From: Psychrobacter sp. HD31
Lineage (GTDB): Bacteria > Pseudomonadota > Gammaproteobacteria > Pseudomonadales > Moraxellaceae
Reading direction: 5' to 3'
DNA: 32,000 nt
NCBI RefSeq assembly: GCF_051097895.1
Contig: NZ_CP142525.1
Location: 1,830,001 to 1,862,000, forward strand
In this document: piece after piece, positions 23,065-26,542 of the stretch
Layout of the letters: each line of letters starts with the position of its first letter
Numbering within the stretch: position 1 is the first letter of the stretch
Notes under the pieces: model-generated
Seen by the model: the letters and a program-made list of their open reading frames with translations, nothing else
The model's database searches: none
What the model was told of the DNA's origin: nothing
Program-made: the position numbers and the translations under genes

Positions 23065-24609
23065 CTACTTTTCTTGATAAGACAGTTTAACAGCTGCTAC
23101 AAAACCATTGTTATCTTCAAAGTTACCAACTAAATTTTCGTTAGGTAGTGCAGCTTCTGCATCACCAAACCATAGGTATTTACCACCAGCAGATACTGCC
23201 CAGTTGTCGGTAATGTTGTATTTAGCACCCAACCCTGCGCTATAGTAGCCTTCAACAGGACCCAGTGAAGAGGTTGGGTTACCAGCACCGCTATCCCAAC
23301 CAATGCCACCAGATACCGCAAGCTTGTCGTTTAAACGCTTTGCTAAGCCAAGGTCAACTTTCCATTGGTCATCAGAATAATTGGCAATAGGCAAGCCTTT
23401 ATCATCCTTAGTACTCTCTTTTGTTAAAGCGTTATATTTTGGTGGGGTGATGGTAAAATTACTCCAAGGGACATAACGCACATTAGCGGTTAACAAGGTT
23501 GTTTGGTTAAGCCCTGTTTGGAAGTCAAAGTTAATAGACTCTGGTGTGGTGATGGCAATATGCCCTGCGTCATCTGAGGATACACCTAAATCTTTTCCAA
23601 CAGGCACAGATTCATCAACGTTAGCTTCATGATCAATTTCTGAGCGGTAGGTTAATGCCGCTTTTAAAGCAATTTCTGGCTTGTAATACGCAACACCCGC
23701 TAACCAGCCTAATGATGTATCTGGAGAGATGTGGGCGTCATAACCTGTAGAGCCACCATATGCAGCGCCTCTAAGTTTGATGTTACCTTGTGTACGTTGT
23801 AGAACAGGGCCACCATAAACTTGGAAGTTGTTATTTTCGCCAAACTTATAGCCTAAAATACCAGTTAAGCTGTTAGAACGAACCTCAACATTAGTGCCTT
23901 CACCTTCAGTTTCACCTTCAGCCTTGGCAACAAAAGGAGTTAATGGCAGTTTCTCTTTCTTACTTTCTAATCCAGCTTTTTCCGCCTCTGCTTTTGATTT
24001 TCCTGCCATTGCTGCGTCTTTCTGTTTTGTTAGAGCAGCAACAGTATCAGTTTGTCCTGCCTGTTCTGCCTGAGCAATTCCTGCTTCCAATGCAGCGATA
24101 CCTGCATCAGCTTTAGCAATGCCAGCTTCATATTTAGCAATGCCTGCATCAATTTGTTGAACAGCAGCAGGTATTACGGTTGGGGCAGCTGCCATATTTG
24201 GGACAAGCCCTTTAGTTAATTTGTTGATAGACGTATCTGCATCAGTAGCAACAAAGTTGTTTTCGCCAGAGTACTTAACAGCAGCACCCCAAGGCTCATC
24301 ATATAAAACACCAACGCTCCATTTATCATTGATGTCATCTTTTACACCAAAACGGAAAAAGTCATAGGTTTCAATAATGCTCTCAACCTTGTTTCCTTTT
24401 ACATTTTTCTCTTCGTCAGAGATAGCAGCATTATCGTAACCCGTGACATCACCATCAATATAAGTGTAAACAGCCTCGGCATATAAGCCATCTTGAAAAA
24501 AAGCGGTTGTATTTTGACCAGAGCGGTCAAGACCAGCAGCAAAGGCGGTTGTAGTGGCTAAAGTAGCAGTGATTGCAAGGGTTAAACGCGATAAATTAAG
24601 GGTGTTCAT
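23065..24609 (-). CDS. FadL/OmpP1/TodX-family outer-membrane transport protein, paralog 1 (514 aa)
   Basis: A GGAGG SD and a signal peptide ending AFA|AG are present. The N-terminus GLDRSGQ and the block GWLAGVAYYKPEIALKAALTYRSEIDH parallel E. coli FadL [24 protein letters not shown]. The rest is an alternating beta-strand-like pattern. A central insert carries heptad repeats. Confidence 0.85.
   Translation of the reverse strand: MNTLNLSRLTLAITATLATTTAFAAGLDRSGQNTTAFFQDGLYAEAVYTYIDGDVTGYDNAAISDEEKNVKGNKVESIIETYDFFRFGVKDDINDKWSVGVLYDEPWGAAVKYSGENNFVATDADTSINKLTKGLVPNMAAAPTVIPAAVQQIDAGIAKYEAGIAKADAGIAALEAGIAQAEQAGQTDTVAALTKQKDAAMAGKSKAEAEKAGLESKKEKLPLTPFVAKAEGETEGEGTNVEVRSNSLTGILGYKFGENNNFQVYGGPVLQRTQGNIKLRGAAYGGSTGYDAHISPDTSLGWLAGVAYYKPEIALKAALTYRSEIDHEANVDESVPVGKDLGVSSDDAGHIAITTPESINFDFQTGLNQTTLLTANVRYVPWSNFTITPPKYNALTKESTKDDKGLPIANYSDDQWKVDLGLAKRLNDKLAVSGGIGWDSGAGNPTSSLGPVEGYYSAGLGAKYNITDNWAVSAGGKYLWFGDAEAALPNENLVGNFEDNNGFVAAVKLSYQEK
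24070..24153 (-). repeat. 4 x 21-bp in-frame tandem repeat encoding heptads IDAGIAK/YEAGIAK/ADAGIAA/LEAGIAQ
   Basis: Codons 153-180 of paralog 1 were translated directly; for example, 24133-24153 reverse-complemented reads ATTGATGCAGGCATTGCTAAA, which is IDAGIAK. Confidence 0.85.
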
Positions 24610-24885: not shown

Positions 24886-24918
24886 AAAAAGCCCCCATAT
24901 TAGCAGGGGGCTTTTTTT
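24886..24918 (-). terminator. Rho-independent terminator of FadL-like paralog 2
   Basis: The stem is AAGCCCCC / GGGGGCTT with a 9-nt loop. On the minus strand it is followed by TTTTTATTT, 38 nt after the stop codon. Confidence 0.8.
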
Positions 24919-24955: not shown

Positions 24956-26542
24956 TTACTTTTCTTGATAAGACAGTTTAATACCAGCGACAAAGCCATC
25001 GTTGTCTTCAAAACGACCAACCAAGTCACGGCTTGGTACCATTGCGTCGGCATCACCAAACCATAGGTATTTACCACCGGCAGATACTGCCCAGCTGTCG
25101 GTAATGTTGTATTTGGCACCCAAACCTGCACTATAGTAGCCCTCAACTGGCCCTAATGAGGTGGTTGGGTTACCAGCACCACTATCCCATCCAACATTAC
25201 CAGATACGGCAAGTTTGTCGTTTAAACGTTTTGCTAAGCCAAGGTCAACTTTCCATTGGTCATCATCATAGGCAACAATGGGTAGCCCTTTTTCTTTAAA
25301 TTCTGGTTTTAATGTACTGGTGGTATTGTAGTTTGGTGGGGTAATTGAAAAATCACTCCAAGGGACATAACGCACATTAGCGGTTAACAAGGTTGTTTGG
25401 TTAAGCCCTGTTTGAAAGTCAAAGTTAACAGATGCTGGTGTGGTAATATCGATGCTACCATTATCATTTTTATATTTTAGTTCTTTAGCAGCAACCTTTA
25501 TATCACCAACCGGCACTACTTCATCAACACTGTTTTTGTGATCAATTTCTGAGCGGTAGGTTAATGCCGCTTTTAAAGCAATTTCTGGCTTGTAATACGC
25601 AACCCCGGCTAACCAACCTAAATCAGATTCTGGCGAGATGTGCATGTCATAGCCTGTTAAACCAGAATATGAAGAACCACGTAAAGAAATATCAGCATGC
25701 AAGCGCTGTAGTACAGGACCACCATAAACTTGGAAATTGTTATTTTCACCAAATTTATAACCAACGATACCGGTTAAGCTATTTGTACGAACCTCAACAT
25801 TTGTTTTTTCTCCAATCGCATCAGACTCATTAGCAACAAGTCCTTGTACCTTTTCGATTCCTGATTTTTTAGTTTCTAAGGCTGATTTTTGAGTTTCCAA
25901 CGCTGATTTCTGAGTTTCTAACCCTGATTTTTTTGTTTCCAGCCCTGACTTTTGTTGATTGAGAGCATTAACTTGGTCGGTGAGCCCTGCTGATTGAGCT
26001 TGAGCGATACCAGCATCAATTTTAGAGATACCAGCATCAATCTGGCCGATTCCAGAATCAATCTGACTGATACCAGCATCAATCTTACCGATGCCAGCAT
26101 TAATTTGATTTAAGCCATCTTTAGCCGCTTGAGCACTTTCTAATTTACCTTGAGATAAAATGGGATACAGTGTGTCTTCGTTTGTTACAAAGTTATTATC
26201 ACCAGAGTATTTAACCGCCGCACCCCACGGCTCATCATATAAAACACCGACGCTCCATTTATCATTGATGTCATCTTTTACGCCAAAGCGGAAGAAGTCA
26301 TAGGTTTCAATAATGTTATTAAGTTTATTTCCTTTGGCGTAATTAGCACTTGGACCATTGGCATTATCGTAACCCGTGACATCACCATCAATATAGGTGT
26401 AGACAGCTTCGGCATATAAGCCATCTTGGAAAAAGGCAGTGGTGTTTTGACCAGAGCGGTCAAGACCGGCAGCAAAGGCGGTTGTAGTGGCTAAAGTAGC
26501 TGTGATTGCAAGGGTTAAACGGGATAGATTAAGGGTGTTCAT
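24956..26542 (-). CDS. FadL/OmpP1/TodX-family outer-membrane transport protein, paralog 2 (528 aa)
   Basis: A GGAGG SD is present. The first 61 aa are identical to paralog 1 and the same ALTYRSEIDH block occurs. The central insert carries two blocks of five heptads each. Confidence 0.85.
   Translation of the reverse strand: MNTLNLSRLTLAITATLATTTAFAAGLDRSGQNTTAFFQDGLYAEAVYTYIDGDVTGYDNANGPSANYAKGNKLNNIIETYDFFRFGVKDDINDKWSVGVLYDEPWGAAVKYSGDNNFVTNEDTLYPILSQGKLESAQAAKDGLNQINAGIGKIDAGISQIDSGIGQIDAGISKIDAGIAQAQSAGLTDQVNALNQQKSGLETKKSGLETQKSALETQKSALETKKSGIEKVQGLVANESDAIGEKTNVEVRTNSLTGIVGYKFGENNNFQVYGGPVLQRLHADISLRGSSYSGLTGYDMHISPESDLGWLAGVAYYKPEIALKAALTYRSEIDHKNSVDEVVPVGDIKVAAKELKYKNDNGSIDITTPASVNFDFQTGLNQTTLLTANVRYVPWSDFSITPPNYNTTSTLKPEFKEKGLPIVAYDDDQWKVDLGLAKRLNDKLAVSGNVGWDSGAGNPTTSLGPVEGYYSAGLGAKYNITDSWAVSAGGKYLWFGDADAMVPSRDLVGRFEDNDGFVAGIKLSYQEK
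25850..25954 (-). repeat. 5 x 21-bp in-frame tandem repeat encoding QKSGLET/KKSGLET/QKSALET/QKSALET/KKSGIEK
   Basis: The units run 25850-25870, 25871-25891, 25892-25912, 25913-25933 and 25934-25954. Each was translated by hand from the reverse complement. Confidence 0.9.
26000..26104 (-). repeat. 5 x 21-bp in-frame tandem repeat encoding INAGIGK/IDAGISQ/IDSGIGQ/IDAGISK/IDAGIAQ
   Basis: The units begin at 26000, 26021, 26042, 26063 and 26084. The 15-nt core GATACCAGCATCAAT is identical in three of the five units. Confidence 0.9.

Follow-up and report, generated by a model that had tools for sequence, protein, structure and literature searches.

Psychrobacter sp. HD31 encodes, on the minus strand of contig NZ_CP142525.1, a FadL-family outer membrane protein whose reading frame contains two blocks of five 21-bp tandem repeats, raising the questions of what these heptads build, where in the barrel they sit and whether their number still changes. 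We analyzed a 32,000-nt stretch containing this gene (positions 1,830,001 to 1,862,000 of the contig, hereafter the window, whose own numbering is used below), in which the repeat-bearing gene, paralogue 2, lies in tandem with a second family member, paralogue 1. The explanation that we consider probable is that the two blocks form a hairpin stalk in extracellular loop L2 of a FadL-family channel, and that this stalk was lengthened by in-frame heptad duplication, as a past expansion and not as a rapid switch.

Two heptad arrays in a FadL-family gene

The gene and its arrays comprise the following features, with the basis of each in parentheses.

24956..26542, minus strand: coding sequence (CDS) of FadL-family paralogue 2, 528 amino acids (aa) (open reading frame (ORF), Pfam, structural model, Foldseek)
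26000..26104, minus strand: block A, five 21-bp units encoding I-(D/N)-(A/S)-G-I-x-(K/Q) (Tandem Repeats Finder (TRF), unit alignment)
25955..25999, minus strand: 15-aa linker AQSAGLTDQVNALNQ, which includes the predicted hairpin turn at aa 185-187 (AGL) (translation, AlphaFold2 model)
25850..25954, minus strand: block B, five 21-bp units encoding (Q/K)-K-S-(G/A)-(L/I)-E-(T/K) (TRF, unit alignment)

An earlier sequence-only reading of this stretch had described two in-frame blocks of five 21-bp units, and the coordinates, codons and linker were found as that reading gave them. TRF found a period of 21 with 4.5 copies at 25860-25954 (score 113) and with 5.1 copies at 26001-26108 (score 125). 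Block A (codons 147-181) reads INAGIGK IDAGISQ IDSGIGQ IDAGISK IDAGIAQ, with invariant heptad positions 1, 4 and 5, and block B (codons 197-231) reads QKSGLET KKSGLET QKSALET QKSALET KKSGIEK, with invariant positions 2, 3 and 6. The two highest lag-21 identities over 84 nt anywhere in the window, 0.80 and 0.77, belong to these arrays, compared to at most 0.51 in 200 shuffles of the DNA, and lag-7 identity of the protein was 0.55 compared to 0.09 +/- 0.03 for shuffled sequence; values so far above the shuffles exclude a chance origin of the arrays.

The 15-nt core GATACCAGCATCAAT, said to be exact in three units, was located in block A at 26006, 26027 and 26069. Describing the units as near-identical in DNA was an overstatement, as the units average 79% pairwise identity within block A and 75% within block B, and the longest exact repeat within the arrays is 17 nt, with its copies 42 bp apart. 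No exact repeat of at least 12 nt was found in block B, where the two units encoding identical QKSALET peptides differ by three synonymous changes. The two blocks are unrelated to each other in DNA (~30% identity). An assembly artefact was ruled out by the diverged units and by the location of the gene on a 2.17-Mb contig.

Assignment of the host protein to the FadL family, also made from sequence alone, was borne out by family and fold searches. Paralogue 2 is identical to the NCBI entry 'outer membrane protein transport protein' from Psychrobacter sp. HD31 and scored 37.8 bits against Pfam PF03349 (OMPP1/FadL/TodX; cut-off 29.7), with 52.9 bits for paralogue 1, in an alignment that covers only the C-terminal half to two-thirds of the protein. 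Because searches of PDB sequences with whole paralogue 2 and with a 72-sequence profile retrieved no FadL, the family was set by Pfam and fold. The AlphaFold2 model of paralogue 2 has 14 strands, with a mean predicted local distance difference test score (pLDDT) of 79.7 and a predicted template modeling score (pTM) of 0.71. Foldseek matched this model to PaFadL (3dwo, E 2e-21), Escherichia coli FadL (EcFadL; 1t16, E 6e-20) and TodX (3brz, E 1e-14) at template modeling (TM) scores of 0.56-0.69 normalized to the target, and a fold search against viral structures returned only low-TM beta-barrel and maturation-protein noise. By family membership, paralogue 2 would act as a channel, presumably for hydrophobic substrates.

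The mature N-terminus, AGLDRSGQNTTAFFQDG (26420-26470, codons 25-41), begins AG-hydrophobic like that of EcFadL, but places only ~16 residues before strand S1 and lacks the NPA motif, in contrast to the 42-aa hatch with NPA of EcFadL. Residues 11-31 of the model have pLDDT below 50, and the plug of this FadL subfamily may be reduced or different.

A predicted helical hairpin in loop L2

The insert and its flanks were resolved into four further features.

26219..26233, minus strand: EPWGA, codons 104-108, a break in S3 (predicted kink) just upstream of the insert (alignment and model)
25802..26209, minus strand: extracellular loop L2 between S3 and S4, codons 112-247, 136 aa (strand order of the model, profile alignment)
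25991..26134, minus strand: predicted ascending helix, aa 137-184, 48 aa, ~7.2 nm (AlphaFold2)
25823..25981, minus strand: predicted descending helix, aa 188-240, 53 aa, ~7.9 nm (AlphaFold2)

In the AlphaFold2 model, the three-residue turn 185-187 (AGL) joins the two helices into an antiparallel hairpin of ~7 nm, with pLDDT of 92-97 over aa 140-220. Given this turn, block A (147-181) lies opposite residues 191-225, which are mostly block B. The prediction thus supports two blocks that are the two arms of one antiparallel helical hairpin, and places both on the extracellular side, in keeping with the hairpin or stalk that had been suggested for the two arms. The Ile residues at heptad positions 1 and 5, noted in the same reading as fitting coiled-coil spacing, occur in all five units of block A with a/d spacing, and block B has Leu or Ile at position 5 and Gln or Lys at position 1. 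Both blocks have Gly or Ala at position 4, directly before the core residue, and close helix packing should therefore be possible. Net charge is -2 for block A and +3 for block B.

Several lines of evidence place this hairpin in L2. Strand S3 spans residues 96-111 in the model and is broken at residue 105 (E96-104 / E106-111), S4 spans 248-264, and connections between strands are 3-5 aa on the periplasmic side and 5-136 aa on the extracellular side, the usual turn and loop pattern of outer membrane proteins. A periplasmic location of the insert was ruled out, since it occupies an odd-to-even strand connection and the alternate connections are the 3-5 aa turns. The idea of a surface stalk had been said to fail if the segment lay inside the barrel or the periplasm, and the predicted structure puts it outside the cell.

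The proposed equivalence of the insert to loop L3 of EcFadL, by contrast, did not hold. With an EcFadL sequence that is 100% identical to 1T16 chain A, hhalign against the family profile aligned EcFadL 198-390 to residues 300-493 (probability 87%, E 4e-6, 174 columns). The EcFadL strand that follows L3 (198-217) falls on residues 300-318, within predicted strand 298-318, and L3 of EcFadL therefore corresponds to the 10-aa loop 288-297 of paralogue 2. Both this alignment to 1T16 and the strand order rule out L3 for the insert, which sits two strands earlier, between S3 and S4, right after the predicted S3 kink. With L3 at 10 aa and L4 at 17 aa, the 136-aa L2 dominates the extracellular face. 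Residues E104, P105, G107 and A108 at the S3 break are invariant in 72 homologues, and in FadL, TodX and CymD a kink in S3 with a conserved glycine makes a lateral opening (PMC7728783).

In the model we favor, one repeat block would make up the ascending arm and the other the descending arm of a two-helix coiled-coil stalk ('there-and-back') of ~7 nm, which would be L2 of a divergent 14-stranded FadL-family channel and would rise directly above kinked S3. With lower confidence, the stalk may project past the lipooligosaccharide layer above the lateral-gate side of the barrel. A stalk in this position would probably serve contact or capture, whether of a hydrophobic substrate, a surface or a partner, and may be exposed to phage and other surface-recognition pressure, although we hold these functional steps with less confidence than the fold.

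Arm lengths and apparent loop exchange among relatives

The tandem paralogue contributes two features to the comparison.

23065..24609, minus strand: CDS of tandem paralogue 1, 514 aa, 70% identical to paralogue 2 (ORF, alignment)
24112-24155, minus strand: weak 21-bp array in paralogue 1, 2.2 copies, score 65 (TRF)

Paralogue 1 carries a degenerate version of the hairpin (IDAGIAK YEAGIAK ADAGIAA LEAGIAQ, with tip AEQAGQTD), and its lag-21 identity of 0.63 is the third highest in the window. A third homologue, P0003, is 68% identical to paralogue 2 and was found in a sequencing-run assembly (Logan SRR32022500, L001:355-1842). The tip motif A-x-x-A-G-x-T-D-x-V-x-A-L is common to all three proteins, and the AlphaFold2 model of P0003 (pLDDT 82.3) places helices at 136-169 and 173-212, joined by a turn (170-172) that falls on the conserved AGx, as in paralogue 2. 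Relative to P0003, the arms of paralogue 2 are longer by 14 and 13 residues, or two extra heptads each. Flank-to-tip lengths are 65/54 for paralogue 2, 52/40 for P0003 and 63/47 for paralogue 1, which is intermediate and less symmetric. Pairing of the arms with each other finds its strongest support so far in this matched change of two arrays of unrelated DNA. In-frame duplication of 21-bp heptad units would have lengthened the stalk independently on each arm, and the arms would have been kept matched, as suggested by the surplus of two heptads on each arm over P0003, the nearest relative to share the tip.

Several points weigh against this explanation. AlphaFold2 is the sole source of the hairpin, and coiled-coil-like sequences are easily modeled as confident helices. 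With a monomer model, pairing of the arms within one molecule cannot be told from bundling between molecules. A two-helix hairpin on its own may be only marginally stable, because the descending arm has one clear hydrophobic core residue per heptad. The co-variation of the arms comes from only three sequences and is inexact, since between paralogues 1 and 2 the ascending arm differs by 2 aa and the descending arm by 7 aa. Finally, the very short N-terminal plug leaves channel function to follow from family membership only.

The second and third of these points bear on a different arrangement, in which the arms would associate with L2 helices of paralogue 1 or of other copies nearby and assemble with them into, for instance, four-helix bundles, to give channel oligomers or a surface lattice. 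A narrow hydrophobic seam with one core residue per heptad, as in block B, often favors higher-order bundles, the tandem paralogues have the same tip motif and similar arm lengths, and EsaA-type xxxLxxG stalks are dimers (bioRxiv 10.1101/2020.08.17.254201). Nevertheless, we regard such bundling as quite unlikely, since in each of two homologues modeled as monomers the turn falls on the conserved AGx and the arms match in length, and the solved FadL-family structures that were matched are single barrels.

The wider family is abundant in Psychrobacter and includes a few Moraxella members. Measured between the same conserved flanks in all homologues, L2 is 18-139 aa long in 120 database proteins. 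In 146 copies from 81 sources (the window and 80 fetched loci) it spans 18-150 aa, with size classes near 18-24, 47, 76-90, 108-116, 124 and 148-150 aa. Two tandem paralogues occur in 63 of the 81 sources and three in one, and the L2 size class of tandem paralogues is almost always different (e.g. 124+78, 124+47, 24+82 and 18+114). Many species share a nearly identical 124-aa type. Most long L2 inserts are rich in Ala and Gln and non-repetitive, and the period-7 and period-21 signals are strongest in paralogue 2, the sole overtly repetitive gene, and weaker in P0003 and paralogue 1. Paralogue 2 would be one extreme of a genus-wide pattern among the tandem FadL paralogues of Psychrobacter and Moraxella, with L2 as a surface module of variable length and with short L3 and L4, the loops that dominate in EcFadL.

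Because some homologues have an L2 of 18 aa, the stalk is presumably dispensable for the basic channel, which leads to the question of whether the repeats have any function. Functionless, low-complexity repeats might simply be tolerated in a permissive loop, given that homologues presumably function with L2 of 18-24 aa and that L2 accepts many unrelated sequences. We consider this neutral expansion very unlikely, because the invariant heptad positions of each block persist despite synonymous divergence, the arms are length-matched with a tip conserved across three genes, and each L2 type, such as that of 124 aa, is well preserved from species to species.

Whether the arrays still change is a separate question. 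Whole-heptad differences exist between relatives (paralogue 2 vs P0003), and units have therefore been gained or lost in evolution. The sequence-only reading had gone further and presented the arrays as an active substrate for slippage or recombination. Under such a contingency locus, slipped-strand mispairing or unequal recombination would actively vary the 21-bp arrays and yield stalks of differing length within a population without a frameshift. The in-frame tandem units, the exact 15-nt core in three units and the 17-nt repeat 42 bp apart, the whole-heptad differences between relatives, and the surface exposure and genus-wide hypervariability of L2 would all fit this mechanism. However, units that are only 75-79% identical, with exact repeats of no more than 17 nt and none of at least 12 nt in block B, make a weak substrate. 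Identical peptides from synonymously diverged units point to old duplications kept at the protein level, and an equal change of both arms needs two coordinated events. The array is moreover known from one genome, and no closer relative was found in genome and metagenome scans. We therefore judge active variation to be quite improbable, and with diverged units and little exact homology the locus looks like the footprint of past duplication and not like an evident live slippage locus.

The search for close relatives of paralogue 2 returned a 90% protein cluster with a single member, and the 80 genome loci retained all showed 55% identity or less. A degenerate DNA pattern combining the last heptad with the tip hit the two paralogues of the window (in paralogue 1 at 24046-24089) and P0003. 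Its only other matches, two in metagenomes, were rejected as chance, as they fell in unrelated ORFs for an ABC-type binding protein and a membrane protein.

Comparison of the two paralogues with each other revealed a mosaic, in which the N-terminal ~60 aa match exactly and barrel segments show 82-100% identity, compared to 11-43% for predicted loops L1, L2, L4 and L7. Synonymous divergence (pS) follows the same division, at 0.24-0.42 for barrel segments (one at 0.62) and 0.55-0.75 for loops L1, L2, L4 and L7. These differences in identity and synonymous divergence support surface exposure and loop-specific divergence, and the mosaic suggests homogenization of the barrel by gene conversion, replacement of loops, or both. 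P0003 has CrcB/TsaD as neighbors, like paralogue 1, with intervening LysR and YrhK genes. In loops L1, L3, L5 and L7 it resembles paralogue 2 (71-100% aa identity), and in L2 it is nearer to paralogue 1 (58%) than to paralogue 2 (48%). Loops appear to have been exchanged between paralogues or lineages.

Known heptad systems and what a FadL stalk would mean

The closest described repeat is the xxxLxxG heptad (NCBIfam TIGR03057). With a cut-off of 18.6 bits, this model scored 19.5 bits on the whole protein and 22.1 bits on the insert in two stretches, in block A only. Block A fits the motif, with Ile at position 1 and Gly at position 4 in all five units, and block B, with Gly or Ala at position 4 and Leu at position 5, departs from it. 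Since only one of 72 Psychrobacter family members reaches the model, the likeness looks like local convergence or expansion of one heptad, and not like an inherited domain. The sequence-only reading had said that its idea would fail if the repeat module were already a described family, and this is partly so: block A passes an existing heptad model. Block B does not fit that motif, and the usual context of TIGR03057, long arrays in YhgE/Pip/EsaA-type membrane proteins, is different.

An exhaustive HMMER search with the insert (aa 133-244) retrieved 461 proteins at E <= 0.001, and no FadL barrel was found among the 149 other best matches. The matches that were scanned included YhgE/Pip membrane proteins with 7-14 matched TIGR03057 stretches and proteins without a family match, and matches to block B were generic eukaryotic coiled coils. 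All other Pfam and NCBIfam matches to the insert (Snf7, SMC, HlyD_2, flagellin and others) were far below cut-off and reflect generic coiled-coil composition. A word-indexed protein search with the insert retrieved nothing, not even the source protein, and was uninformative, probably due to low-complexity filtering.

The Gram-positive proteins YhgE, Pip, EsaA and YueB resemble paralogue 2 in that block A passes the same TIGR03057 heptad model, and YhgE/Pip proteins are the top database matches to the insert. The ectodomains of EsaA, YueB and PIP form long helical stalks that run 'there and back again' from a membrane anchor, and EsaA-type ectodomains act as phage receptors in several species (bioRxiv 10.1101/2020.08.17.254201). 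Their host proteins are polytopic in the cytoplasmic membrane, whereas block A has five units only and the stalk is predicted on a gammaproteobacterial outer-membrane beta-barrel. EsaA stalks are also dimeric and carry a beta domain at the tip.

Among FadL proteins, EcFadL (1T16), PaFadL (3DWO) and TodX/TbuX/CymD have the 14-stranded barrel that is predicted for paralogue 2, whose modeled S3 also shows a break with a nearby invariant Gly, as at their S3 kink. EcFadL differs in having an L2 of about a dozen residues (read from the 1T16 sequence), in contrast to 136 aa here, and large L3 and L4 loops in place of loops of 10 and 17 aa. Surface loops of this family are known as receptors and antigens: E. 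coli FadL is the receptor for phage T2, and loops of Haemophilus OmpP1 vary between strains. Those loops are likewise exposed at the surface, to phage and to immune recognition, but are short and irregular, and the literature searches turned up no helical stalk or heptad array in them.

A similar hairpin design is found in the membrane fusion (periplasmic adaptor) proteins such as AcrA, MacA, HlyD and EmrA, in which heptad-based antiparallel two-helix hairpins stand between beta-rich parts and both arms change length in match from one family member to another. HlyD_2 matched the insert below threshold (E 0.007, 15.7 vs 25.1 bits). The adaptor hairpins, however, are periplasmic, dock to TolC-type channels and form hexameric tubes, and there is no homology.

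Full-text literature searches on FadL proteins and on Leu-X-X-Gly heptads found no description of such a FadL stalk or of L2 size polymorphism, in agreement with the earlier statement that no FadL-family protein with such a repeat stalk was known. The family, fold and heptad type are known; a heptad-built helical stalk in FadL L2 and a genus-wide L2 size polymorphism are apparently new.

FadL channels serve as the paradigm for passage of hydrophobic molecules across the lipopolysaccharide barrier, and substrate capture by solved members has been attributed to loops L3 and L4. In paralogue 2, L3 and L4 are minimal and a predicted helical L2 of 136 aa stands right above S3, a strand that is predicted to be kinked and whose kink makes the lateral exit in FadL, TodX and CymD. 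A stalk that proves real and functional would offer another means of reaching past the surface layer, and arms that change in step, heptad by heptad, would be a clean natural example of coiled-coil length tuning by tandem duplication. If it is merely a tolerated loop expansion, it would be a curiosity only. The L2 size classes of 18-150 aa and the paired paralogues provide a ready comparative system.

A more speculative possibility, to which we give limited credence, is that the L2 hairpin serves a lipid-uptake channel as an extracellular stalk of adjustable length, which would make it the outer-membrane equivalent of the Pip/YueB/EsaA stalks. Its height would be set by matched gain or loss of heptads on both arms, and it would present a contact point beyond lipooligosaccharide or capsule that captures hydrophobic substrates or serves as, or evades, a phage receptor. 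The tandem paralogues of differing L2 size class that most Psychrobacter genomes carry would then make up a two-height system.

The surroundings of the two genes were also inspected. Neighboring genes are housekeeping (TsaD, CrcB, TauE, DUF2799 and MurJ), and no fad, hydrocarbon or lipid-catabolic operon was found among the neighbors of the paralogues. One candidate regulatory feature was noted.

24892..24909, minus strand: terminator-like hairpin directly downstream of paralogue 2 (consensus match only, in a count not above chance)

This candidate suggests separate transcription of paralogues 1 and 2, although scans for promoters and terminators gave counts no higher than expected from shuffled sequence. 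An 89-aa ORF on the plus strand (25564-25833), antisense within paralogue 2 over a barrel-coding part, is unsupported and probably spurious. At the C-terminus, family members end in ...KLSYQ(E/A)K (24956-24982 in paralogue 2), with S, Y and Q invariant and Lys last, whereas EcFadL ends with an aromatic residue (...NFNYAF).

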